Shown here: piece after piece, positions 4,568-46,666 of the stretch
Numbering within the stretch: position 1 is the first letter of the stretch
Layout of the letters: every line of letters starts with the position of its first letter
Source of the DNA: Candidatus Nomurabacteria bacterium
GTDB lineage: Bacteria; Patescibacteriota; Saccharimonadia; Saccharimonadales; VXPC01
Length of the DNA: 64,000 nucleotides
Assembly: GCA_020631905.1 (NCBI GenBank)
Contig: JACKGQ010000001.1
Location: forward strand, 421,854 to 485,853
Direction: 5' to 3'
Made by a program: the position numbers and the translations under genes
The notes under the pieces: generated by a model
What the model was told of the DNA's origin: nothing
The model's input: only the letters and a program-made list of their open reading frames with translations
The model's database searches: none

Positions 4568-5283
4568 GCCTCCAAGATCCAAGATCTAAGATCAAAGATC
4601 TAATTCCAAAGCATATTGGGATTATCTTAGATGGTAATCGGCGGTGGGCCGAAGAAAACGGTTTACCGACAATGGAAGGCCACCGAAAAGGTGCCGACAA
4701 TATCGAGTTCGTTGCCGAAGCCTTGTTTGATAAAGGTGTCGAGTATGTGTCTTTATTTGTATTTTCTACCGAAAACTGGAAACGGACTACCGAGGAAGTT
4801 GGCTATCTGATGAAGTTATTTGTAAAGCTGTTCAAAAAAGACAGCCAGCGTTTGATTGATCGAGGTTATCGAATTCTGTTTGCCGGACGACGTGATGGCA
4901 AGATTAACAAAGATATAAGTGAGGCAATCGAAGATCTCGAAGACAGTTCTAAAAATGGTAAGAATGGCACACTTGTTTTTTGCTTCAACTACGGCGGCAC
5001 AACCGAGATAGTCGATGCGGTTAAAGGTATTGTTGAGTCTGGCATAAATCCCGAAGATATCGATGAGCAAACATTGTCCGAAAACATGTATCAACCAGAA
5101 GTCCCACCAATCGATCTGCTGGTGCGGACAAGCGGCGAACAAAGAATCAGTGGTTTTCAGCTATGGCGAGCAGCTTATGCAGAACTGTTGTTTATTGATA
5201 AACACTGGCCAGATTTTAGTCCGGCCGATGCTACAATGATTATCGATGAATTTTCGGCGCGTAACCGGCGGTTTGGAGGCTAA
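4564..5283 (+). CDS. uppS: Isoprenyl transferase / undecaprenyl-diphosphate synthase
   Basis: HIGIILDGNRRWA, FSTENWKR and RTSGEQRISGFQLW motifs. The ATG overlaps the upstream stop (ATGA). Confidence 0.92.
   Translation: MSLQDPRSKIKDLIPKHIGIILDGNRRWAEENGLPTMEGHRKGADNIEFVAEALFDKGVEYVSLFVFSTENWKRTTEEVGYLMKLFVKLFKKDSQRLIDRGYRILFAGRRDGKINKDISEAIEDLEDSSKNGKNGTLVFCFNYGGTTEIVDAVKGIVESGINPEDIDEQTLSENMYQPEVPPIDLLVRTSGEQRISGFQLWRAAYAELLFIDKHWPDFSPADATMIIDEFSARNRRFGG
4570..4603. repeat. Right arm: heptamer array in inverse orientation, inside the first codons of uppS
   Basis: CCAAGAT CCAAGAT CTAAGAT CAAAGAT CTAA. It pairs with 4177-4195. Confidence 0.9.
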
Positions 5284-6468
5284 GTGAATATATTTCTGAT
5301 TATCCTTGGGCTTGTATTATTTCAGTTACTAGTAATACTGCATGAATATGGTCATTTTTTGATTGCCAAGCGCAATGGTGTAGATGTTGAAGAGTTTGGT
5401 TTAGGCTTTCCACCAAAGATTGCCGGCAAAACAATGGGCAAGGGCATCTTCCGGGGTTACTACACAATCAATTGGTTGCCATTGGGTGGATTCGTGCGCC
5501 TTAAAGGCGAAAACGATAATGCAAAGGGTAAGCGTACCTATGGTGGATCGAGCTTAAAAGTCAAAGCAAAAATTATTCTTGCTGGTGTAGCCGTTAACTA
5601 CATAATTGCCGTAATTTTATTTACGATTCTTGCCGCCGTCGGTATCCCTAAACTCCTGCCTCTAGAGCCAATCACAACCGACCAACAGTTCACCGTGGCG
5701 CGCGATACAAAGATTATCGACCAGCGGACTTACATTAACTATGTCGACAATAATTCGCCGGCGGCAATTGCCGGAGTCGAACAGGGCGATAAGCTGTTAA
5801 AAATTGGCGAGACCCAGATCAATAGCTACGAAGACTTAAAAGCCACAACTCCGCTTTATGCTGGGCAGACGGTGAATGTTGTCCTCGAGCGAGGTGGCAC
5901 CGAACTCGTAAAACCGGTAAGCTTTATAAGTGAAGACGAGCATAGTCAAAGTGTTCAAGAATTTGACTCATGTATGACGAGCGGCGCGACAGATTGCGCT
6001 ACCCCGAAAGGCTATTTTGGAGTGCTATCACAAGATTTTGTACTCCAGCGAAGCACCTGGTCGTCACCGATCACAGGCGTTGTCTTGAGCGCTCAGTATA
6101 CAAAAGTCACTTTTCAAGGAATATGGCACGCAATTAGTGCACTTTTTAGCGGCAACACTCAAGAAGCCGAGAACTCGGTGGCTGGTCCGCTAGGTATATT
6201 TTTTGTAATCAAGCAGAGCGCTAATTATGGGCTAAGATTCTTACTGATGTTTATTGCCACGATATCTCTAACCCTGGCGATTATGAACAGTCTGCCGATT
6301 CCGGCTCTAGACGGTGGCCGTCTAATGCTCACAGTCTTGTTTAGAAAAGTGCTTAAAAAACCTCTTACAAAAAGCCTCGAAGAGCGAATTGTCGGCTCGA
6401 GTATGGCTGCATTGTTGGCATTAATGCTATTAATCACGATTGTCGATGTCCGTAGATTCATTCTATAA
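5284..6468 (+). CDS. rseP: RIP (site-2) zinc metalloprotease RseP/RasP family
   Basis: HEYGHFLIAK (HExxH) in TM1, a central PDZ-like segment, and a C-terminal NLLPIPALDGG-like motif (NSLPIPALDGG). GTG start. Canonical position after uppS. Confidence 0.9.
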   Translation: MNIFLIILGLVLFQLLVILHEYGHFLIAKRNGVDVEEFGLGFPPKIAGKTMGKGIFRGYYTINWLPLGGFVRLKGENDNAKGKRTYGGSSLKVKAKIILAGVAVNYIIAVILFTILAAVGIPKLLPLEPITTDQQFTVARDTKIIDQRTYINYVDNNSPAAIAGVEQGDKLLKIGETQINSYEDLKATTPLYAGQTVNVVLERGGTELVKPVSFISEDEHSQSVQEFDSCMTSGATDCATPKGYFGVLSQDFVLQRSTWSSPITGVVLSAQYTKVTFQGIWHAISALFSGNTQEAENSVAGPLGIFFVIKQSANYGLRFLLMFIATISLTLAIMNSLPIPALDGGRLMLTVLFRKVLKKPLTKSLEERIVGSSMAALLALMLLITIVDVRRFIL

Positions 6469-9588: not shown

Positions 9589-11550
9589 ATGGCAACACTC
9601 AAAGAATATCGAGACGAGCAGTTAGCAAAAGTATCAAGACTACGCGAAATGGGTATAGATCCGTATCCAGCCAAGAGCTTTCGCGATACTCAGGTTTCTG
9701 AAATCATTAACAACCCAGAATCAAAGATGGGCCAAGGTGTCTGTATAGCCGGTAGGTTAGTTGCACATCGTCAGCACGGCAAGGTTCAATTCATCGACCT
9801 AGAAGATTCCGGGGCCACAATCCAGGTGATAGTGCACGATGGCTCACTCCAACCAGAGTATCCAAAAGGCTTACTTGGTTTTGCAGATCTAGGCTTATTA
9901 ACGCGAGGTGATTTTGTAGAGGTAGCTGGGGTAGTAGCCAACAGCCAAACCGGTCAACTCTCGATCGAGGCCAAAGGCGTGCGCATATTAACCAAAGTAC
10001 TCCGACCACTGCCAGACAAGCTCGACGACAAAGAATCACGCCTACGCCGACGTTACCTCGACATGGCGGTTAACCCAGAAGTTCGTGAGCGATTTGTTCG
10101 TCGGAGCAAGTTTTGGCAAGCAACTCGTAATTTTTTAAACGGTGAAGGTTTTACTGAAATCAATATTCCTGTACTCGAGCATACGACTGGTGGGGCAGAT
10201 GCCAACCCATTCGTAACTCATATGGACGCGCTTGGCGAAGACTTTTATCTGCGGATTAGCCATGAGTTGCCACTCAAGCGGTTACTGGGAGCTGGTTTTA
10301 CTAAGGTTTACGACATAGGCCCACGCTTCCGCAACGAAAACTATAGTGATGAACATTTACCCGAACATGTAGCTATGGAATGGTACTGGGCTTATGCCAA
10401 CTGGGAAGATGGCATGCAACTAACTCAGAGAATGGTGCGCTACATTGCCGACAACACTTGGGGAACCCGCCAATTTACGCTAGCCAACGGTATGCAAATC
10501 GATCTAGGCGCCGACGATCAAGATTGGCCAAAAATAAGTTTTGTTGGCTTACTCCAAGAAAAATATGGTCTAGATGTGCACACATGCAGCCTCGAAGAAG
10601 CAGTAGCCAAACTCAAAGAAGTTGGTGGCGAGGTCGAGAAAGTCGAAAACCGCAGCCGGGTAATCGATAAACTTTGGAAACTCGAACGCATTAAAATTGC
10701 CGGGCCGGCATTTCTGATTGAAGTACCTGATTTCTTGCAGCCGCTCGCCAAACTCAACAATTCCGACAACCGTTCAAGTGAACAGTTCAACCTAATGCTG
10801 GGTGGCAGCGAAGCTTGCAAAGCATATAGTGAGCTTAACGATCCGCTAGATCAATATGGTCGGTTTGTGCAGCAACAGCAGATGCGTCAGGCGGGTGACG
10901 ACGAGGCGATGATGATGGATGTCGACTTTGTCGAGATGCTCGAGTATGGCATGCCGCCGGCATGTGGCTATGGCAATAGCGAGCGATTATTTTGGATGCT
11001 CGAAGGTGTAACCGCCCGCGAAGGTGTCGTGTTCCCACAACTTCGCAGGGAAGTTGACGAGACAACTAAGGGCATTTACCCCGAAGTATATGCTGCCGAT
11101 GGTTTGCTCGCCAATGCCAGTGGCCGCGAGCAGGACTTTACCAAAAGGATAGTCGCGGTGGTCAACAAGCAACTAGAGTCATGGCAAGTAGCCAACACGG
11201 CCGCCCATATGAGCGCCTACCATGCTCACAAAATGGCCAAAGACGAATTTGATAGTGGTGAGTTTTTTGTAACAAAAGATAACCACATGTTGCCCCGCAA
11301 CAGCCAGCACCCAATCCTTATCAAGAAAGCCGAGCTCAAAGAGCTACACAAGCTGTACAACAAAGCCAAAGAAGCAGGTATCCGGCTGCATGTATTTATA
11401 AAAGAGATGATCGATACAAATAGTGATGCCGAGATAGTTGAGTCGCTCAAATATCAAACAATCGACGAAGTAGTAATCTATGGTATCGCGCTGTATGGCG
11501 AAAACGAAACGGTCAATAATCTAACTAAGCATTTCCAGCTCTGGAACTAA
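9589..11550 (+). CDS. lysS: Lysyl-tRNA synthetase (class II) fused to a C-terminal DUF2000 / PTH2-like domain
   Basis: OB-fold N-terminus and class II core (FRNENYSDEHLPEH.MEWY; GYGNSERL). The LysRS body ends near VVFPQLRRE (about aa 490). An extra ~140 aa from about nt 11125 (KRIVAVVNKQLESWQVANTAAH...IYGIALYGENETVNNLTKHFQLW) resembles DUF2000. Confidence 0.88.
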   Translation: MATLKEYRDEQLAKVSRLREMGIDPYPAKSFRDTQVSEIINNPESKMGQGVCIAGRLVAHRQHGKVQFIDLEDSGATIQVIVHDGSLQPEYPKGLLGFADLGLLTRGDFVEVAGVVANSQTGQLSIEAKGVRILTKVLRPLPDKLDDKESRLRRRYLDMAVNPEVRERFVRRSKFWQATRNFLNGEGFTEINIPVLEHTTGGADANPFVTHMDALGEDFYLRISHELPLKRLLGAGFTKVYDIGPRFRNENYSDEHLPEHVAMEWYWAYANWEDGMQLTQRMVRYIADNTWGTRQFTLANGMQIDLGADDQDWPKISFVGLLQEKYGLDVHTCSLEEAVAKLKEVGGEVEKVENRSRVIDKLWKLERIKIAGPAFLIEVPDFLQPLAKLNNSDNRSSEQFNLMLGGSEACKAYSELNDPLDQYGRFVQQQQMRQAGDDEAMMMDVDFVEMLEYGMPPACGYGNSERLFWMLEGVTAREGVVFPQLRREVDETTKGIYPEVYAADGLLANASGREQDFTKRIVAVVNKQLESWQVANTAAHMSAYHAHKMAKDEFDSGEFFVTKDNHMLPRNSQHPILIKKAELKELHKLYNKAKEAGIRLHVFIKEMIDTNSDAEIVESLKYQTIDEVVIYGIALYGENETVNNLTKHFQLWN

Positions 11551-11596: not shown

Positions 11597-12343
11597 ATGT
11601 CAAGAGAGCATGATGAACATATGCCCGAGCAGTCAGGTCACGATCACGATGTCGATGATAGATTGCCTTGCGCCGATCAACACCAGCATCAACACGACCA
11701 TGCCGAGGCCGGCCATAGCCATAGTTTGTCCGATATCACGCTCGATGAAGCCGAAGGCCACTTACGAGATGATGCAAGGGTTCTGAGCGCAGTTGGCGGT
11801 GCGGCTGTTGTTAGCGAAGCAGTCGGTTTGTCGTATCTAAAAACAGTTTTTTCGCTGGGGGGTGAAGATGCCTGGTGGGTAATTCGTAATGCTCGCAAAG
11901 CCTGGCGCAATGAAACAGGTAACCGCTGGCGAAAACTAAATGCTGCTTTCCAGGCAAGCAAAATATCTTTAGCTACAGTTGTGGCAGTTTCGGCATTTGC
12001 CGCACCGGTTGTCGAGTACATGGTCGACCACTCGCCGAAGCTTGCGACCACTGGTGTTTTTTGTGCTGCCGCAACTGCAACTTCCACAGTCGCACTAATC
12101 GAAGATGCCCGAAATGATCGCCTAAATCATGTGCATACAGACATAGCAGAAATGCACGCGCGCCAGTTTCGCACAGAGGGCATAATTGGTACGTATGTTC
12201 TTGGTTTTGCAGGCTACGAACTTATTGGTAATGGCAACCCAATCTATATGGCAATTGTCGGCGGCACAGACTGTTTATGGACAGGCTTTCGTAGTTGGCG
12301 ATATGTTTCTAGAGTTTCTGAGCTGCACAATCAGACACGATAA
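11597..12343 (+). CDS. Hypothetical membrane protein with a His/Asp-rich N-terminus
   Basis: 13 His in the first ~55 aa (HDEHMPEQSGHDHDVDD...QHQHQHDHAEAGHSH), followed by several hydrophobic helices. Confidence 0.7.
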   Translation: MSREHDEHMPEQSGHDHDVDDRLPCADQHQHQHDHAEAGHSHSLSDITLDEAEGHLRDDARVLSAVGGAAVVSEAVGLSYLKTVFSLGGEDAWWVIRNARKAWRNETGNRWRKLNAAFQASKISLATVVAVSAFAAPVVEYMVDHSPKLATTGVFCAAATATSTVALIEDARNDRLNHVHTDIAEMHARQFRTEGIIGTYVLGFAGYELIGNGNPIYMAIVGGTDCLWTGFRSWRYVSRVSELHNQTR

Positions 12344-12411
12344 TTAGCCAGCTAGTAATACAGATGAGTTTAATGTAAACTATTATTCGAATTAAGGGGA
12401 TATTATTAATT

Positions 12412-13368
12412 ATGGCTTCGTCCAAACGTACGACTACTAAAAAACCTAGCACAGCACGACCAAAAGCTGCCAAAAAACCAGCTGCGAGCAAGACAGCCGC
12501 TGTCAAAACAACTTCTAAAAAACCAGTTGCAAAAACGGTAGCAAAAAAAGTAACCAGCAAAACAACTGCTACTAAGGTAGCAAAACCTGCAGCTAAAAAG
12601 AAAAACGCTACAGATAAGTTTATGCAACTAAAACAGTGGAACCTAGCCCTAGGTGTACTTCATGCTGCTCAAGCAGTAGCGGTGTTTTTACTGGCCAAGG
12701 ATTTCCGAGTGCCTTTTAGAACAGAATATCTAACGTTTAACGAAGCTACACAGAGTTTAGAGTCGGCTTCGCGTTTGCTATTCGAACTACCGCTAGCTTG
12801 GCTAATTGTGGCCTTTTTCGCGATGAGCTCGATAGCCCATTTTGTAATTGCCGGACCTTGGTTTAAAAAATATAAAGCTGATTTAGAAAAAGGTATGAAC
12901 CGTGCTCGCTGGGTAGAGTACGCTGTAAGCGCCAGTACGATGATGGTCGCGATCGCAGCATTAGTTGGTGTAGTTAGTTTACCACTAGCCTTTAGCATGT
13001 TTGCATTAACTGCAGTCATGAACTTACTTGGTTTAGTTATGGAAACGCACAATCAGGGTCAAGCCAAACCAAATTGGCTGAGTTATTGGGTTGGCACAAT
13101 TGCCGGCTTAGTACCTTGGCTTGTTGTTGCCAGCTACTTTGTTAGTAACTGGTTTTATGGCAGTGGCAATCCGCCAACCTTTGTTTACATTATTTTTGTA
13201 AGCATTTTTGTAGCCTTTAGTAGTTTTGCAGTTAATATGTGGTTGCAGTACAAAAAGAAAGGCAAGTGGGCCGACTATCTTTACGGCGAAAAAGCCTATA
13301 TGGTTCTTAGCCTTGTTGCCAAAAGCGCCTTAGCTTGGCAAATATTTGGCGGTACTTTGCGCCCATAA
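12412..13368 (+). CDS. Heliorhodopsin, with a possible Lys/Ala/Thr-rich N-terminal extension
   Basis: aa 74-318 match heliorhodopsin along the whole length (GVLHAAQ; IAHFVI; RWVEYAVSAS; GLVPW; GEKAYMVLSLVAKSALAWQIFGGTL). Schiff-base Lys304 is at nt 13321-13323. The alternative start at M71 (nt 12622) would give a canonical-length protein. Confidence 0.88.
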   Translation: MASSKRTTTKKPSTARPKAAKKPAASKTAAVKTTSKKPVAKTVAKKVTSKTTATKVAKPAAKKKNATDKFMQLKQWNLALGVLHAAQAVAVFLLAKDFRVPFRTEYLTFNEATQSLESASRLLFELPLAWLIVAFFAMSSIAHFVIAGPWFKKYKADLEKGMNRARWVEYAVSASTMMVAIAALVGVVSLPLAFSMFALTAVMNLLGLVMETHNQGQAKPNWLSYWVGTIAGLVPWLVVASYFVSNWFYGSGNPPTFVYIIFVSIFVAFSSFAVNMWLQYKKKGKWADYLYGEKAYMVLSLVAKSALAWQIFGGTLRP

Positions 13369-14079: not shown

Positions 14080-14133
14080 AAAAAGAGAAAACCCCGGCCA
14101 ACGAGTGGCCAAGGGCTCTCTAGTTGGTCGGGG
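14080..14133 (-). terminator. Rho-independent terminator of the small minus-strand membrane gene (also closes the convergent HAD gene)
   Basis: On the minus strand, CCCCGACCAAC...GTTGGCCGGGG is followed by TTTTCTCTTTTT. An inner GGCCA-ACGAG-TGGCC hairpin is present. The sequence is related to 39458-39520. Confidence 0.7.
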
Positions 14134-14449
14134 CGTTGCGGTGTTCGCGAGCGTACTTCGATAGCAGGTAGAACATAATTCCAAGTCCATACCATGCACA
14201 GAAGAACATAGCTGCGCCGAACAAGTTTGATTCCGCAAGGCCTCCAAGGTAAACCGCAACCCCGAGCGGGATAAACGGTATGAAAGTGAACAAGAACAAG
14301 ATCCACGAAATACCGTAGGTAAGCCTCCAGGGCAAACTACAGCCTTCCGCGTCTTTCGAATGCTGCCAGATGATGAAACAGAACAACCCCACCACCAGAA
14401 ACAGGGCGACGATGTCCATTACCATATCCCAGATTTCTGAGGTGGTCAC
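14120..14449 (-). CDS. Small hydrophobic protein (~109 aa, 3-4 TM)
   Basis: GTG at 14449 with AAGGAG 7 nt upstream. The ORF track extends to 14476. It has its own terminator. Confidence 0.65.
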   Translation of the reverse strand: MTTSEIWDMVMDIVALFLVVGLFCFIIWQHSKDAEGCSLPWRLTYGISWILFLFTFIPFIPLGVAVYLGGLAESNLFGAAMFFCAWYGLGIMFYLLSKYAREHRNAPTN

Positions 14450-14541
14450 GCGAAATCTCCTTTTGTAAAAGAACACCTAAGCAGTAATTCTACACAATAT
14501 TGGAGCAGGGTAAAGCACGAGCTTTATTTAAACTAGTTGAT

Positions 14542-15129
14542 TTATTGACCGAAGAGCTCTTGAGCATATTCGACGTTAGCATCACGCACTGCCGTCTGAC
14601 AATCAAAATAGATATTAGGTCCTGCAGACATGCCGCAGGCTACATTTCCCATATATTCCTCGGAAAATCCCAACTTTCCATGTGGCTTATCAGATTTTGT
14701 AAATTTAGCATTTTCATCAATATATTTCGTAAATGTATTGTATTGTTGGGCATCTGATTCCGGGTAGGTGATTGTTAGATAGCATATTTGATTGCCTCCA
14801 TACTTTTCCTGTGTAATTCCGCAAGAGTTAGTAAACTCAGCATCAGCTGATATGGATGAGTTTGTAAAATCAACTAATTCATTAAAGTCTCTGAATAGGT
14901 TAGTCATAAAACGGCGATTCTGCCAATCGTCGTATTTACCATTTAGCCATATACTCAAAGGTATAAACAAAAGTAATATAAAAAAGCTAACCAGTTTATG
15001 TTTAAAGGCTAAGCTAACAACTTTATGCAGCATAGAGACGTTACTGGACTGCTTTGAGACTACTTTTGGGGTAGCTTGCTTGCTGGCTGGAGTTTTCTTT
15101 TTCGGAGTAGTTTTACTTGCTCTGGGCAT
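14542..15129 (-). CDS. Hypothetical membrane-anchored protein: Lys-rich N-terminus, one TM helix, Cys-containing extracytoplasmic domain
   Basis: MPRASKTTPKKKTPASKQATPK tail, a single TM helix (LVSFFILLLFIPLSIWL), and 4 Cys in the exported domain. It starts 12 nt after the upstream SGNH gene. Confidence 0.7.
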   Translation of the reverse strand: MPRASKTTPKKKTPASKQATPKVVSKQSSNVSMLHKVVSLAFKHKLVSFFILLLFIPLSIWLNGKYDDWQNRRFMTNLFRDFNELVDFTNSSISADAEFTNSCGITQEKYGGNQICYLTITYPESDAQQYNTFTKYIDENAKFTKSDKPHGKLGFSEEYMGNVACGMSAGPNIYFDCQTAVRDANVEYAQELFGQ

Positions 15130-15141
15130 AGATTAAGTATA

Positions 15142-18090
15142 TTACTTATGCTTATTTACAGCAAAAGTAACTCCTACCATAGCACCAAATAAACCTAAGA
15201 CAATTAGAAACAGCATCCAATTATGCCCAGCTAATTTGTTGTCGGTGCTTGTGTCGCTATTTTCAGGATTGGCTATTGTTTGGTTGTCGGACTGAGCACC
15301 TAATACCTTGGTGCTTTTATTTCCTGCTGTAGATTTCGCGGAATTAGCAGCTGAAACTCCTGCAGCAAACAGTTGGGTGACTTTATTTGTAAGGGATAGA
15401 GCCGGAGTTATGACCGACACATCGCGCTGTGGTTTTAGATTGCTAGGGTCGGCTGGGTCGTCGTTATTACCACTATTACCATGCAGTTTTTCGGCACCAA
15501 CATTAAGGTCGCAGATATCATCGATGCCGTCTCTATCGGTGTCTTGACCGGAGTTGGGTACAAGTATGCAACTATCTATTGTGTCGACTATCCCATCGCC
15601 GTCAAAGTCTTGCTGGTCGAAACCAAGCAGAAAACTATCGATGTATTGGTGCTTTTTGCCATAGATATCGACTGCATCAATAACTATCTCATGGCTACCA
15701 GGCTCTAGGTTGTCTGGCAGTGAAAAGCCGACTGTTAGCTTTCCGAGCGTATCTACTTGCCCGGAAAATACAAGCTGCGGGGTAGAGTGTACGTATACAT
15801 CGACCACCGAGCCTGGCATTAACCCAGTGATTTCTTTGGAGATCTGGCTAGGAGTACCTGGATCTGGATAAGTTAGCTTTAATGGATCAATACTGTATTC
15901 ATCTGCCAAGGCTTCGACGACGGCGTCGCGAGCATCATTTCCAAAGACAACTGAGTCGGGCAATGGTGTAGGCGATGCAGTTGGTTCGGGCATCGGCTGG
16001 GTTAGATTGCTGGTAGCTAGGAGGATTTGTGACTCATATAATTGGTGGCCTAACTGGTTTGGGTGGTACGAGCTGTTACCAATACACTCGGTCGGACAGA
16101 GTCCAAATAAATCTGTATCGGTCTCGATATCTAGCCCATTCACTGCGATTAGACCAGGGTCCTTATTCGAACACAGCCAGTAGCCGTTAAAAGTATCTTC
16201 GACATTAACATAAAATACCCCAGCTTCGTCGGCGGCGGCTTTAATAATCTGGTTGAGGTACTTGGTGGTATTAAAAATAAATTCTCTCTCTGTCGCGTTA
16301 AATAGCACTCCGATGTGGCAATCGTTGGCAGTCGGGCTGGTGATTGTTGGGTAGCCAAGAATATATATACGACTCTCCGGAGCACTTTGTTTGAGCTTTA
16401 GATAGGCCTTAACTAGTTTTGGTTTAACTTTGGCAATTCGGACAATTGTCTGTGCATGTTCAGCTGTGCCGGGCTCGGCTTGCGGACAAGTACCCGGACT
16501 GCTCGGAAAGATACAAGCTTGAATGAAATCCGAGAAGAATGCATCGTTCCCACCGATACCTAGGGTAATTTGTTCGGGGTTACTATAGCCTTTACGGTTC
16601 AAATTGTCTGGTAATAAACCGGGGTGTAAAAAACTTTCTTGGGTAGATATTCCTGATTGCCATTCCTCCATGAGGCTGGATGCACTAAAGCGGTACTGAT
16701 TATTCGTAGAAGTGAACTCTTCTTGTGTACCATCACTCTGCTTTTCGCCAAGCGGGCTTCCAATAATATTGTGAGTTTTGGCACCACTGCAGGCAACCGA
16801 ATGAAACAAACCATCTGCTGGCGGTTGGCTTGAATTGTCTAGCAGGTATCCAAGTTCCATCGCCAGAAGGTAAGAGTAGCTTTTGCGGGAAATATGGCAC
16901 ATATTACGTTCCGCATAGGTACTAATATCACCCTTCTCATCTGTGCCTGGCTCGTAGTCATAGGCGCCTTCGCCGCTAGAGTAGCTATCTCCCATAGCCA
17001 GATAACCTTCTGCACCGTTCGGTTCGCCCAAAGAATTGGCCCGACTAGCAGGGTAGAACTCTAGCCGAATATTCTGGCCTGTAGCTGGGTTGGTGCGATC
17101 ATGAATAAAACGTAGCCCATCTGGGGTTATCCACGAGCCTAAAGATTTAGTGTAGTTACTAGTATAAGGTACTAAATCTGCAGCGCTATTGTAACTCGGC
17201 ACACAAGTTGCCGGCAGGTTGGCGAAACCGTTACTCGGCCAGTTGCCATCGGAGTACGAAGTACACAATGTTAGGTCGTAAACTACTGGTAGCCCGCTAT
17301 CTACTACAACATATCGACCATATGAGTCGACGTTAATATCGAGAAACGGCATAGTTGTTGACTTGCTAATTGCAAATGGGGTGTAGCTACGCGTTTGTAG
17401 ATCTATCATTGCAAAACCTTGTCCATAAACCATTACCGCTGCGTAGCGTCCGTTAGCCGAAAACCAGATGCCCTGAAAACTCAATACCACGTATTGATTA
17501 TCGGAATACCTATAAGCATCTGTAAAACTAGCTGGGTCGACTGTAAAACCTTTTTGTTCAAGCGCTGACACACCACTGCCGATTGTGCGAGTAGTAAATT
17601 TGCCATTTGTGCCGGCCTTGAAACCAGAATTAAAACTTAGATAACGGGCGTAGGTTATACGTGGATAGGGCTGAAGATAAAGATAACTATCACTATTCGG
17701 GGCAAACCATAAATCACCTTGAGTATTGCGCAGCTCATACATTTTTTCGGGAGTATCGAGGTCTGGCGCCCAGAAACCCGGCCAGTGATAACCAGCGTTG
17801 CTTCGAGTTAAGCAATAGTCGCCAAGTGGTTGGAGAATCTCCTCGGTAGTATTGGTGTATTTGTAGGAGATGAGCGGGCTATTTTGGGTTTCGATTTCTT
17901 TAAGCAAAACCTTATTGGTGTCGAAGTAGGCACATGTCCCCATCTCGCGAGTATCTGGATTAGATGGGAAATCAATCTGTCGATTGATAACTGTGTCATT
18001 CCATTCACTGGCTGCTTGTAAAGTAGAAGGCAGGGAAATATAGGTTATAACAAAGAATAAGACTAAACCAAAAAACCTCGCACCTCGCAT
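15142..18090 (-). CDS. Large surface-anchored SGNH/GDSL hydrolase with thrombospondin-type-3-like Ca-binding repeats (982 aa)
   Basis: Signal peptide (...PSTLQA/AS). GDS block (YLAMGDSYSSGEG), GxND block (GIGGNDAFF), and a C-terminal catalytic region (SSYHPNQLGH). Asp-rich repeats DFDGDGIVDTIDSC...DTDRDGIDDICD. S/N/T-rich stalk, then a C-terminal TM helix ending in NKHK. Confidence 0.82.
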   Translation of the reverse strand: MRGARFFGLVLFFVITYISLPSTLQAASEWNDTVINRQIDFPSNPDTREMGTCAYFDTNKVLLKEIETQNSPLISYKYTNTTEEILQPLGDYCLTRSNAGYHWPGFWAPDLDTPEKMYELRNTQGDLWFAPNSDSYLYLQPYPRITYARYLSFNSGFKAGTNGKFTTRTIGSGVSALEQKGFTVDPASFTDAYRYSDNQYVVLSFQGIWFSANGRYAAVMVYGQGFAMIDLQTRSYTPFAISKSTTMPFLDINVDSYGRYVVVDSGLPVVYDLTLCTSYSDGNWPSNGFANLPATCVPSYNSAADLVPYTSNYTKSLGSWITPDGLRFIHDRTNPATGQNIRLEFYPASRANSLGEPNGAEGYLAMGDSYSSGEGAYDYEPGTDEKGDISTYAERNMCHISRKSYSYLLAMELGYLLDNSSQPPADGLFHSVACSGAKTHNIIGSPLGEKQSDGTQEEFTSTNNQYRFSASSLMEEWQSGISTQESFLHPGLLPDNLNRKGYSNPEQITLGIGGNDAFFSDFIQACIFPSSPGTCPQAEPGTAEHAQTIVRIAKVKPKLVKAYLKLKQSAPESRIYILGYPTITSPTANDCHIGVLFNATEREFIFNTTKYLNQIIKAAADEAGVFYVNVEDTFNGYWLCSNKDPGLIAVNGLDIETDTDLFGLCPTECIGNSSYHPNQLGHQLYESQILLATSNLTQPMPEPTASPTPLPDSVVFGNDARDAVVEALADEYSIDPLKLTYPDPGTPSQISKEITGLMPGSVVDVYVHSTPQLVFSGQVDTLGKLTVGFSLPDNLEPGSHEIVIDAVDIYGKKHQYIDSFLLGFDQQDFDGDGIVDTIDSCILVPNSGQDTDRDGIDDICDLNVGAEKLHGNSGNNDDPADPSNLKPQRDVSVITPALSLTNKVTQLFAAGVSAANSAKSTAGNKSTKVLGAQSDNQTIANPENSDTSTDNKLAGHNWMLFLIVLGLFGAMVGVTFAVNKHK

Positions 18091-18129
18091 TGCACATATA
18101 TTGTAGCAAAGCTTAAGCGCCTATGGCAG

Positions 18130-19875
18130 TTATTCTATGAAACCACCAGATTGATGTTGCCAGAGCTCGTAGTAAAGACCTTTTTCCTCGAGCAATTCGG
18201 CGTGGGTACCGTCCTCGACAATCCTGCCATCGTCCATAACCACAATTCGATCCATATGCTTTAATGTGCTTAGTCGATGTGCGATAACTATACTGGTTCG
18301 ACCCTTCATAACGGTGTTTAAGGCTTTCTGAATGTGGGCTTCACTCTGGCTATCGAGGGCACTGGTAGCCTCATCGAAAAGTAAAACCGGCGCATTTTTG
18401 GCTAAGGCTCGTGCGATAGCTACTCGTTGACGTTGACCTCCAGATAGCTTTATACCTTGGTCGCCGACAACCGTGTCCAGACCTTTGGGTAGGTCTTTTG
18501 CGAACTCGTCTACGTATGCTTGTTTAGTAACCCGCACAAGTTCTTTTTGATCGAGTTTGCTCGAGCCGTAGATGATATTATCTTTAATACTTCGCCTAAA
18601 TAGAGAGGGCTCTTGAGGTACATAAGCGATTACTTTGCGTGTGTTCGCCGAACCTAATTTGTCGATATTTACACCTGACATATAAATGTGCCCGTTGGTA
18701 GGTTCGTAGAGCCTAAGCAAAAGTTTGGTTAGGGTGGTTTTTCCCGATCCGGACTTGCCGACAATACCAACTTTTTGTGAAGCAGGGATTTCTAGATTAA
18801 TCGATTTTAACGATTCGGTGTTTGAGTCTGGATACTGGAAGTCTAGGTTATTGATACTAATAGACACTGGGCCTGCAGGTAACTTTTTACTTGTTTTTGG
18901 TTCTGAGACTTTCTGATATTTCTCTTCAACTTCGTCGAGGCCGGTGGCAAGGCTAGTTTCTTCGCTAAAGTTTCTGATAAAGTGAGAAATATTATTAACA
19001 TTGCGAGTTGTCATAGCTACATAAGACTGGAATAACACATATGTACCAATGGTTATGTCGCCGCGTACAAAAAACCATAAACCAATGATGACGAAAAGTG
19101 CTTCTAGGGCAAAGCCACTAAACTGGACAATCATTTGCTGGCGTACAGCATAAAAGGCCCGAATAAAGCCAACTTGCCATTGTTTTCGACCAACCTCTAG
19201 TAGTCTTTCTAATTCTCGGGTCTGTGATTGTTGCTGTTGTACAAGCTCGGCATTTTGAATTGTGTCGGTCAGCTCTGTACCCCAGTCGTCGAAAGCTTGG
19301 TTAGAAGTTTTATTGATCTCGACTCGCTTGCGCGCAAACCAAATTAAGAGAATGCTTGCTGGTATAAACACACCCAAATAGATAAAAGCGAAAGTTATAC
19401 TCTTTGAGGCAATCACACCAATCGTGATAATTGTGGTAATGATGATGTTAATTAACGACTCGGATTCGATTCGAAAAACATTTATATACGAGGCTTTGCG
19501 GTTGCCTTTTAGCTGTAGGTCGCCTTTACCGTTGTCTACCAAGGCAGCGTAGGGCAAGTTATGAATTTGAAAGACACCTTTAGCACGCCGTTCCAAACCA
19601 AATTTTTTGTTAAGTATCACATCGGAGCGTCTAGAAATTGAGTAGAGAGCAAAAACTAAAGCCGACAAGCCGACCGAAAGACCAGCTAAGAACTTCCACT
19701 TGCCGGACAAACTGCCATTTGCCGCCGAATCGATTATATATGCCGACATAAGTGGGATAGCCTGAGACGAGATAACATTAGCTGGAACAGATAGGTAGAA
19801 ACCTATCGTATGCAGCTTTTCGGCCCACATATCTTTTAACACATCTTTGATAAGGTTTTTTAAGTGATGGTTCAA
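18130..19875 (-). CDS. ABC exporter, fused permease and ATPase (MsbA/type I exporter-like)
   Basis: Six-TM N-terminal domain. Walker A GKSGSGKTT, signature LSGGQRQR, Walker B LLFDEATSALD. Confidence 0.9.
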   Translation of the reverse strand: MNHHLKNLIKDVLKDMWAEKLHTIGFYLSVPANVISSQAIPLMSAYIIDSAANGSLSGKWKFLAGLSVGLSALVFALYSISRRSDVILNKKFGLERRAKGVFQIHNLPYAALVDNGKGDLQLKGNRKASYINVFRIESESLINIIITTIITIGVIASKSITFAFIYLGVFIPASILLIWFARKRVEINKTSNQAFDDWGTELTDTIQNAELVQQQQSQTRELERLLEVGRKQWQVGFIRAFYAVRQQMIVQFSGFALEALFVIIGLWFFVRGDITIGTYVLFQSYVAMTTRNVNNISHFIRNFSEETSLATGLDEVEEKYQKVSEPKTSKKLPAGPVSISINNLDFQYPDSNTESLKSINLEIPASQKVGIVGKSGSGKTTLTKLLLRLYEPTNGHIYMSGVNIDKLGSANTRKVIAYVPQEPSLFRRSIKDNIIYGSSKLDQKELVRVTKQAYVDEFAKDLPKGLDTVVGDQGIKLSGGQRQRVAIARALAKNAPVLLFDEATSALDSQSEAHIQKALNTVMKGRTSIVIAHRLSTLKHMDRIVVMDDGRIVEDGTHAELLEEKGLYYELWQHQSGGFIE

Positions 19876-45610: not shown

Positions 45611-46666
45611 TTGAAAAGCTCCAGAATTAAACTATTTATCAACCTGTTGACCTTTGTTGCACTTGGAGCATTGATATTTTTCTCGAGAGCTCAAATTAGC
45701 GATGCCCTACATCAACTAAAAGAACTGAGTGTTGGCTTTTTGGTGCTACTCGTGCCGACTCAGCTGGTTAGCTACTACGCAATCGCCCAACTATACTATT
45801 CTTACTTTAAGGCCACCAATACGCTGGAAAAACTAACTCTTAAAGAAATGTATTGGATTAGTTTAGAGCTAAACTTTGTGAACTGTGCATTTCCGAGCGG
45901 TGGCTTGAGCGGCTTCTCGTTTATGGGTTTACGTCTGCAACCCTATGGCATACCGGTGGCGGCGACCACACTCTCGCAGATAATTCGTTATTTTATGACT
46001 TTTATAAGTTTCTTGGTGCTATTAGCCGCAGGCACGCTTTTTTTGGCTTTTGGTAACCATGTAAACGGTATTGTCTTGTTGGTAAGTAGCGGAGTCTTTT
46101 TTGTGACGGTAACCGGCACCTTGATTGTCGTCTATATTATTAGTAGCGAACATCGGATTAAGTCGTTCATGCTGTCTTTACCAAAGACAATCAACTGGAT
46201 TCTACGGAAAGTTGGTCGGAGGTCTGGGTCGTACTCGATTAATCTTAATAGGATTGAGCGAGTTTTTTCGGAGTTACATAGAGATTACTTACTACTAAAA
46301 AAGGACCCAAGCATACTCAAGCGACCATTCTTGTTTGGGCTAATGACAAACGCATGCGAGGTCCTGACAGTTTACTGGGTATTCTTAGCGTTCGGTTCGC
46401 CTGTAAATCCTGGAGCAGTAATTTTGGCTTATGCAGTGGCCAACATGGCATCGGTGATTTCAATTTTGCCGGGAGCTGTTGGCATGTATGAGTCGCTAAT
46501 GGTTTATGTGGCAGCAGCGGCTGGTTTGTCGCGGGGGTTATCGATCTCGGCAACTTTAGTATACCGAGTGTTTATGCTGTTAATTTTCGTACCTTTTGGA
46601 GCAGTTCTTTATCAAATGTCAGCAAATCGACGCAAAACGCAAAATACCCATACTCTAGATGGATAA
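45611..46666 (+). CDS. Polytopic membrane protein, LPG-synthase-TM / UPF0104 (flippase-like) family
   Basis: Eight or so TM helices. The N-terminal pattern (K.........L.....L..F......I...L) is typical of the family. TTG start with an AAGGA RBS. Confidence 0.6.
   Translation: MKSSRIKLFINLLTFVALGALIFFSRAQISDALHQLKELSVGFLVLLVPTQLVSYYAIAQLYYSYFKATNTLEKLTLKEMYWISLELNFVNCAFPSGGLSGFSFMGLRLQPYGIPVAATTLSQIIRYFMTFISFLVLLAAGTLFLAFGNHVNGIVLLVSSGVFFVTVTGTLIVVYIISSEHRIKSFMLSLPKTINWILRKVGRRSGSYSINLNRIERVFSELHRDYLLLKKDPSILKRPFLFGLMTNACEVLTVYWVFLAFGSPVNPGAVILAYAVANMASVISILPGAVGMYESLMVYVAAAAGLSRGLSISATLVYRVFMLLIFVPFGAVLYQMSANRRKTQNTHTLDG

Follow-up and report, generated by a model that had tools for sequence, protein, structure and literature searches.

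The window examined here, a stretch of 64,000 nucleotides (nt) from contig JACKGQ010000001.1 (assembly GCA_020631905.1), carries a heliorhodopsin (HeR) gene that raises two linked questions: from which of two in-frame ATG codons its protein is made and, if from the upstream one, what the additional residues would do for a photoreceptor. What heliorhodopsins do for the cell is a matter of continuing debate. An earlier note on this DNA had proposed, from the letters alone, that the sequence ahead of the canonical-length start encodes a lysine-rich, histone-H1-like cytoplasmic tail. From our comparative analysis of sequences, the 318-amino-acid (aa) product of the ATG at 12412 is very probably the real one, with the tail translated and under selection. 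The reading that we favour for this tail, by analogy with other basic tails and at a probability of roughly 45%, is that of an electrostatic tether for nucleic acid at the cytoplasmic face of the membrane.

Conservation of the tail and choice of the translation start

We compared the protein with its 120 closest homologues (50-76% identity), 90 of which possess an N-terminal extension of 54-93 aa with 23-35% K, at most 8% D+E and a net charge of +11 to +30. The NCBI annotation of the identical gene ('heliorhodopsin HeR') gives a product of 248 aa beginning at Met71 (M71), and the call from an independent Logan assembly (P0271) gives the identical 318-aa product. The earlier note had stated that its tail would fail if orthologues started at the position of M71, and no such start was found: only 1 of the 90 tailed homologues has a Met in that column, and their tails share the same composition, length and charge. 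Since 72 of the 90 have no Met within the 25 residues upstream of the domain, an internal ATG start close to the domain is unavailable to them, with GTG and TTG starts left possible by the protein sequences. M71 itself falls within helix A as predicted by AlphaFold, and neither a Shine-Dalgarno (SD) nor a -10 motif was seen in the bases before 12622. Under the long start, the intergenic gap measures 17-39 nt in the three closest relatives.

Judged from these alignments, the 248-aa NCBI call is a truncation, and its start was probably chosen to suit a family model whose match opens at residue 73. Because the annotation chose M71, the tail is absent from the public record of the gene. Annotation guided by family models trims such tails, so that surveys using those records will miss them.

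We then considered the bases upstream of the tail ATG. A TAnnnT box is found 5-8 nt upstream in all 15 of the tailed HeR genes with DNA, compared with 13% of all ATGs. In 8 of these 15 genes the box takes the extended form TGnTAnnnT and ends 6-7 nt before the ATG (in 9, if 4-10 nt is allowed), the background being 1.8%, and the untailed HeR genes carry it within 4-10 nt of their own starts in 28 of 61 cases, 27 of which lie at 6-7 nt. This -10-only pattern was derived from a comparative alignment of HeR upstream regions; a simple sigma-70 scan upstream of 12412 found no promoter with both hexamers. Leaderless mRNAs are translated from a 5'-terminal AUG, and the placement of the box looks like the signature of such mRNAs, with the mRNA probably starting at or just before the tail ATG.

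It was also noted that many genes of the window (e.g., those at 11597, 30282, 54222, and 61069) have a TGnTAnnnT-type box 6-9 nt before their start and no Shine-Dalgarno sequence; the genome appears to mix leaderless and SD-led genes. Two minus-strand open reading frames (ORFs) lying opposite the tail, at 12309-12560 (83 aa) and 12406-12627 (73 aa), were classed as shadow ORFs because the coding strand is T-poor and their products are rich in Phe, Cys and Leu.

Composition and disorder of the tail

The ORF list and a codon count bore out the same-frame, lysine-rich opening that had been described from the ATG at 12412, with 20 Lys codons among the 70 that precede M71. In the AlphaFold model, residues 1-65 form a coil without secondary structure (pLDDT about 40-60) that runs straight into helix A. 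The tail carries a net charge of about +18, nearly lacks acidic and aromatic residues and contains no Cys or His, and no Pfam domain was found in residues 1-72.

When the 90 tails were pooled with that of the window, the 91 sequences averaged 71.6±8.1 aa in length and +20.2±2.6 in net charge. Their composition is dominated by K (29%), T (21%), A (14%), and S (13%), with Thr and Ser together at 33%, followed by V (6.5%) and P (3.7%); ILMFWY account for 5.5% and FWYCH for 1.5%. The tails share the N-terminus M-A-T-T-(T/K)-K, and the first codons, ATG GCT ACA AC, are kept at the DNA level.

The tail DNA is 46% A, and the probability that 70 codons of its own base composition contain no stop is about 0.02. 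Across the 898 tail codons of 13 loci, zero stops were encountered (joint P about 2e-22 from base composition). Compared with the base-composition expectation, Lys, Thr, and Ala are enriched 2-4-fold in the tails (K 2.3-fold), and Glu, Asn, Gln, Ile, His, and Tyr are depleted 5-30-fold. These residues are depleted although their codons are equally A-rich, which points to selection on the protein and not on the RNA. A tandem-repeat check of the tail DNA returned one weak 12-nt repeat of 2.8 copies at 12519-12552.

Distribution of tails among heliorhodopsins and other proteins

Nearly all of the related loci derive from Saccharibacteria metagenome-assembled genomes. Tailed HeR loci made up about 10 of 80 among the species-representative genomes returned, and most of the Saccharibacteria HeRs start with 'MSKKIT...'. 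In the wider family, which comprises 2973 cluster representatives at E<=1e-3, we evaluated the 150 nearest 50%-identity cluster representatives and found a K-rich tail of at least 30 aa in 22 of the 134 evaluable proteins. A rough neighbour-joining tree placed the tailed HeRs in at least two clades with untailed clades between them, this tree being too crude to choose between repeated gain and repeated loss of the tail. The first clade is that of the window (P0001-P0007) and has a short extracellular loop 1 (ECL1); the second is a large clade with an insertion in ECL1. The tail is thus a clade-wide trait of large Saccharibacteria HeR clades and not a peculiarity of this gene.

The sequence of the tail diverges fast, with only about 35% identity to that of the closest relative. 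In other species, the same syntenic block holds HeRs with basic N-termini of 15-20 aa and a net charge of +4 to +8, and the tail therefore resembles an expansion of a pre-existing basic N-terminus. At the orthologous locus, it looks as though such an expansion has been held to narrow limits in both length and charge.

To place the tail among other lysine-rich segments, we surveyed 908 kb of DNA consisting of the window and 80 further loci, nearly all from Saccharibacteria. A strongly K-rich 40-aa segment was found in 22 ORFs, 11 of which were HeRs. Most of the remainder were C-terminal tails of proteins of about 830-880 aa that were taken as SecA, an assignment which synteny provides for those of the window and of locus L081. 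What a laxer threshold added was limited to SecA-like N-termini, sortase-like neighbours, aquaporins, and a handful of further proteins. In this DNA, long tails of the HeR type are thus nearly confined to heliorhodopsins, and the idea that K-rich tails are common throughout the genome was rejected.

Proposed role of the tail

Heliorhodopsins have an established inverted topology with the N-terminus inside, and since the tail is continuous with helix A, it would be cytoplasmic. The net charges of intracellular loops 1-3 (about +4, +1, and +2.6) and of the tail (about +18) agree with this predicted orientation. A segment with a charge of +18 to +20 and almost no hydrophobic residues would have little else to do than bind polyanions, and we consider such binding the better bet. 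The tail would then act as a sequence-independent electrostatic tether for cytoplasmic polyanions, with nucleoid DNA or ribosomal or messenger RNA as possible targets.

DNA-binding tails rich in K, A, P and T (H1, HupB, Hc2) and the tails of YidC/Oxa1 proteins differ from lipid-binding polybasic motifs, which normally contain aromatic residues. Nucleic acid is preferred over lipid as the bound polyanion because the composition of the HeR tail is like that of the DNA- and ribosome-binding tails and not like that of the aromatic-containing lipid-anchoring motifs, although this preference is tentative and we hold it at rather less than even odds. A HeR dimer would bring together about +40 charges of flexible tail and could hold nucleic acid at the membrane beside the photoreceptor. 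Given that the tail runs on into helix A, its contact with the polyanion could respond to light-driven changes on the cytoplasmic side. That binding is in fact modulated by light is pure speculation and appears improbable to us. We regard as similarly doubtful the fuller picture in which tailed HeRs are light-modulated tethers between membrane and nucleic acid in the ultra-small episymbiotic Saccharibacteria; by its two flexible arms of about +20, each dimer would keep nucleoid DNA, or ribosomes and mRNA, at the membrane, and its grip would alter under illumination, so that light would act directly on translation or on the protection or repair of DNA and no dedicated transducer protein would be needed.

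Several observations weigh against a nucleic-acid tether, or against the long product on which it depends. The start context in the window is weaker than that of its relatives: TATTAT lacks the TG extension, and the possible Shine-Dalgarno element AAGGGG stands at an unusual spacing of 12 nt, the SD-led genes of the window mostly using 4-10 nt. The cytoplasmic loops are equally charged in tailed and untailed HeRs, and there is thus no sign of an acidic docking patch for the tail. Many Saccharibacteria HeRs, some of them at the same syntenic locus, have a basic N-terminus of only 5-20 aa, so that the tail must be dispensable for basic HeR function. Tails rich in K, T and P and of about 30-35 aa also occur at the N-terminus of an aquaporin and of a single-pass protein of the window, and a general membrane-protein role fits these short tails at least as well. 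The resemblance to H1 and Hc2 remains below threshold, as HC2 (PF07382), whose cut-off is 40 bits, gives the window tail 15.2 bits and none of its relatives more than 22.4. Lastly, no DNA- or RNA-related partner specific to tailed HeRs was found, the neighbours being syntenic housekeeping genes.

We weighed four other explanations. That the tail is not made at all, with translation starting at M71 and 12412-12621 being a 5' untranslated leader that is open by chance, agrees with the choice of the NCBI pipeline and with the weaker start context just described. It is very hard to maintain when none of the tailed orthologues examined has a stop in the frame (the 898 codons above), when M71 is non-conserved, lies inside helix A and follows no visible Shine-Dalgarno or -10 motif, and when composition, length and charge are conserved across about 90 homologues. 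We consider it just as improbable that the selected feature is the RNA, in the sense that an A-rich, unstructured 5' coding region aids leaderless initiation and the peptide is a by-product. The leaderless-type promoters, the A content of the tail DNA and the first codons kept at the DNA level would suit such a role; the 5-17-fold depletion of Asn, Gln, Glu, and Ile and the 2-4-fold enrichment of Lys, Thr, and Ala are not predicted by A-richness, a length of about 200 nt far exceeds any initiation region, and the narrowly conserved net charge also counts against it.

Two further explanations accept the tail as a protein segment. It could be an element of the membrane surface or of biogenesis that touches no nucleic acid, by contact with the anionic phosphatidylglycerol and cardiolipin of the inner leaflet, as an exaggerated 'positive-inside' signal that sets the N-in orientation or by controlling how the receptors spread and cluster in the membrane. 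The apparent expansion from a shorter basic N-terminus is consistent with this, as are the short K/T-rich N-tails on other N-in membrane proteins (the L057 aquaporin, the related L060 protein and the 14542..15129 product) and the net positive charge of all the cytoplasmic loops. However, untailed HeRs including 48C12 and TaHeR insert correctly with 2-4 N-terminal charges, so a charge of +20 exceeds what topology needs; the tail lacks the hydrophobic and aromatic residues usual in lipid-anchoring polybasic segments, and its narrow range of length and charge across clades suggests a more specific requirement. We judge this explanation unlikely, but it is to be taken seriously. A tail that serves as a flexible arm on which a partner protein docks or is regulated, perhaps under the control of Ser/Thr phosphorylation or Lys acylation, would match the published HeR functions, which all consist of partner regulation (glutamine synthetase, photolyase, ABC transporter; PMC11109279). 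The tail is dense in modifiable residues (a third Thr+Ser and 29% Lys), and an ABC exporter is encoded 5 kb away in the window. Such an arm nevertheless appears to be a long shot, as the tail diverges fast and has no conserved short linear motif except the N-terminal MATTKK, no partner gene co-occurring specifically with tailed HeRs was found, and the exporter lies within an insertion that the closest relative does not have.

A selected tail of about 70 residues and +20 on what is presumably the cytoplasmic side of the membrane, the supposed seat of signalling, offers a simple handle on HeR function. To our knowledge, the only functions shown so far for HeRs are the regulation of individual partner proteins and the transport of protons, the latter by a single viral member of the family. 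If the light-modulated tether is true, it would be a novel output mode for a microbial rhodopsin and would give a concrete function to part of the HeR family. If the tail is merely lipid-binding or topogenic, the result becomes a modest note on membrane-protein evolution in Candidate Phyla Radiation (CPR) bacteria.

Identity of the heliorhodopsin domain

The product of this Saccharibacteria (TM7) gene is a genuine heliorhodopsin, and the family call itself is already known. Profile searches upheld the assignment made in the earlier note over the full length of both models: Pfam PF18761 matched residues 73-316 (E=1.2e-90; 303.5 bits where 26.7 is required; all 242 positions of the profile, 1-242), and the NCBIfam equivalog NF038020 'HeR' scored 305.7 bits against a cut-off of 100 (model positions 1-244 of 244). 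The top PDB matches of the ORF product were TaHeR (6is6; 7e-65) and 48C12 (6su3; 7.7e-56).

When the 6su3 alignment was counted residue by residue, H84, H143, E169, S300, and K304 paired with H23, H80, E107, S237, and K241 of 48C12, and all five were unchanging across alignments of 24 and of 89 homologues. The lysine, the glutamate and the two histidines that the earlier note had singled out are thus the expected ones, and the codon positions given for K304, E169 and M71 proved right (Table 1). In 7clj, a TaHeR entry with a mutated counter-ion, the difference from 6is6 falls exactly where E169 aligns. The AlphaFold model, which was built on the homologue alignment, has a mean pLDDT of 84 and a pTM of 0.76, with pLDDT of at least 90 in the domain. 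It contains seven transmembrane (TM) helices (66-94, 128-147, 164-185, 190-213, 223-249, 256-280, and 289-315), of which helix A begins at residue 66, and an ECL1 beta-hairpin with strands 99-110 and 115-127. The features by which the HeR family is recognized, namely the retinal Lys in SxxxK, a single Glu counter-ion, two conserved His and seven TM helices with an ECL1 hairpin, are all present.

Table 1. Positions of the heliorhodopsin gene, its start signals and residues, and of other membrane proteins with short K/T/P-rich N-tails (window coordinates unless a locus is named)
Feature	Position	Strand	Basis or remark
Heliorhodopsin coding sequence, long start	12412..13368	+	318 aa plus stop; ORF list, Pfam and NCBIfam HeR matches, Logan assembly call
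Disordered polycationic N-terminal tail, residues 1-65, K/T/A/S/P-rich	12412..12606	+	AlphaFold coil, homologous tails, amino-acid usage
Heliorhodopsin domain, residues 66-318	12607..13365	+	AlphaFold model, PDB alignments
AAGGGG, alternative Shine-Dalgarno-like element	12394..12399	+	12 nt before ATG 12412
TATTAT, -10-like hexamer, candidate promoter of a leaderless mRNA	12401..12406	+	ends 5 nt before ATG 12412
Met71 ATG, start of the NCBI record (248-aa product)	12622..12624	+	P0001, MCA9348944.1; probably not the main start
His84	12661..12663	+	His23 of 48C12
His143	12838..12840	+	His80 of 48C12
Glu169, Schiff-base counter-ion (TM helix 3)	12916..12918	+	codon gag; E107 of 48C12
Lys304, retinal Schiff-base lysine, S300-x3-K304 motif in TM helix 7	13321..13323	+	codon aaa; K241 of 48C12
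Orphan single-pass protein, 195 aa, short K/T/P-rich N-tail	14542..15129	-	
MIP (aquaporin) match, about 280 aa, short K/T/P-rich N-tail	L057 7838-8680	-	
Relative of the L057 aquaporin, about 280 aa, K/T/P-rich N-tail	L060 8855-9703	-	resemblance to the L057 protein

Comparison with known systems

The protein resembles the canonical HeRs 48C12 (6su3) and TaHeR (6is6) in its full family match, seven TM helices, ECL1 hairpin, SxxxK motif, Glu counter-ion and both His residues, and retinal-synthesis genes, which other HeR hosts lack, were likewise absent from the scanned ORFs of the window. It differs from the two structures, which have about 10 residues before helix A, in possessing about 65 extra disordered N-terminal residues with a charge of about +18.

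N-terminal additions to HeRs have been described before. Bulzu et al. (2021; PMC8612252) reported MORN-repeat and zinc-ribbon modules fused at the HeR N-terminus together with ten N-terminal extension variants, 'ntv1-ntv10'. Its main text describes no lysine-rich variant; the Saccharibacteria polycationic tail is probably among these ten. It shares with MORN-HeR and Znf-HeR an additional cytoplasmic N-terminal module and a monoderm-type lineage; the MORN and zinc-ribbon modules are folded and matched by Pfam/HHpred (PMC8612252), whereas the window tail is polycationic, of low complexity and without homology that the searches could detect. Neither MORN repeats nor a CxxC...CxxC zinc ribbon occurs there: residues 1-72 have no Pfam domain, and the tail is predicted to be disordered and is free of Cys and His. 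A search of the available library found no lysine-rich HeR tail, papers on 'disordered' HeRs having been judged by titles and abstracts, and surveys of CPR rhodopsins were silent as well.

The likeness to histone H1 is one of composition and, on the sequence searches, not of homology. The tail resembles chlamydial Hc1/Hc2, the C-terminal domain of mycobacterial HupB, Pseudomonas AlgP and the C-terminal domain of eukaryotic H1 in being a disordered, acid-free polycation of 60-100 residues that is rich in K, A, T, S and P and carries KKP- or TKK-type motifs, though it is richer in Thr/Ser and poorer in Ala/Pro than tails of this type. Four tails, scanned with Pfam at E<=10, matched nothing but HC2, and that below its threshold (15-22 bits), and a search with the tail alone of a collection of 5.8 billion proteins gave 285 word-sharing candidates, none at E<=1e-3, so that no homologue outside the HeRs was detected. 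The H1/HU resemblance put forward in the earlier note therefore stands for composition and falls as a statement of homology. Unlike the tails of nucleoid proteins, that of the window is joined to a seven-TM photoreceptor and not to a DNA-binding fold.

Basic C-terminal tails in the YidC/Oxa1 family (Streptococcus YidC2, Rhodopirellula YidC) bind ribosomes. Here the likeness is that of a long, disordered, polycationic cytoplasmic tail on a polytopic membrane protein, which in YidC/Oxa1 binds an RNA-rich particle electrostatically. The HeR tail differs in standing at the opposite terminus of an unrelated protein.

Genomic neighbourhood

The HeR gene lies in a housekeeping block without a conserved signalling partner or retinal genes. 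Both tailed clades share this block, which contains LysS and, from the HeR onward, a TrmA-like tRNA methyltransferase, RsmE, a PD-(D/E)XK nuclease, SerS, HPF, and SecA. The TrmA-like, LysS, RsmE, PD-(D/E)XK, and SerS genes are enriched beside tailed HeRs; they were considered as tail-specific partners and rejected, since the same block adjoins HeRs with short N-termini.

A Pfam scan covered about 45 ORFs of the window, with about 20 ORFs of at least 90 aa, including SecA and small or orphan ORFs, lying outside it. None of the scanned ORFs was a gene for carotenoid or retinal synthesis, and none encoded a photolyase, a glutamine synthetase or a histidine kinase, in agreement with the earlier remark that the window shows no retinal-biosynthesis gene. 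This is expected, because Saccharibacteria generally lack retinal genes and are believed to obtain the retinal that they use from the host (PMC9296517). No second rhodopsin was found in the window, nor any tRNA, tmRNA or Rfam match.

The gene immediately upstream of the HeR, at 11597..12343 (+), has a product of 248 aa whose N-terminus is rich in His and Asp (HDHDVDD...HQHQHDHAEAGHSH) and which contains two to three weakly hydrophobic segments. It had been described as a His-rich membrane protein; the His/Asp-rich N-terminus is indeed there, and the membrane part is less secure, given the weakness of the hydrophobic segments and the lack of a Pfam or NCBIfam match. The product may bind metal. 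A homologue was found only in the closest relative (L081 4007-4699), which argues that it is not a conserved HeR partner. Further upstream, the lysyl-tRNA synthetase at 9589-11550 (+) has 653 aa, and its relatives (L081 1999-3960, L083 1954-3915, and L084 1514-3463) carry an extra C-terminal DUF2000 (precomputed Pfam) that is conserved in HeR-bearing relatives.

Downstream, minus-strand genes at 14120-19875 split the block HeR-HAD-RsmE-PD-(D/E)XK-SerS-HPF-SecA in the window and are absent there from L081. They comprise a 118-aa ORF, the 195-aa K-tailed protein, a 982-aa protein, and an ABC exporter (18133-19875). The 982-aa protein looks secreted or anchored, with an N-terminal hydrophobic segment, Asp repeats like those of thrombospondin type 3 and a C-terminal TM segment in our reading of its sequence.

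Other genes accompany HeRs at related loci. A single-pass protein of about 222 aa with a sortase-like TLYTC motif is encoded divergently just upstream of the HeRs with short N-termini (L012, L019, L027, L033, L041, L049, L055, L061, L062, and L078, at about 5200-5950 on the minus strand) and is absent at tailed loci. In the large clade, the tailed HeRs have upstream of them a conserved trio of genes (L007 2235-5819 (+), with homologues in L010, L013, L021, and L022) that was encountered at none of 71 untailed loci; its members are a pilin-like protein with an N-terminal methylation motif and a galactose-binding-like domain, a protein of no family, and one with a sub-threshold VWA-like match. 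Elsewhere in the window, the gene at 45611-46663 (+) encodes a lysyl-phosphatidylglycerol-synthase TM-region domain (PF03706), and its product could affect the surface charge of the membrane and hence what a polycationic tail meets at the inner leaflet.

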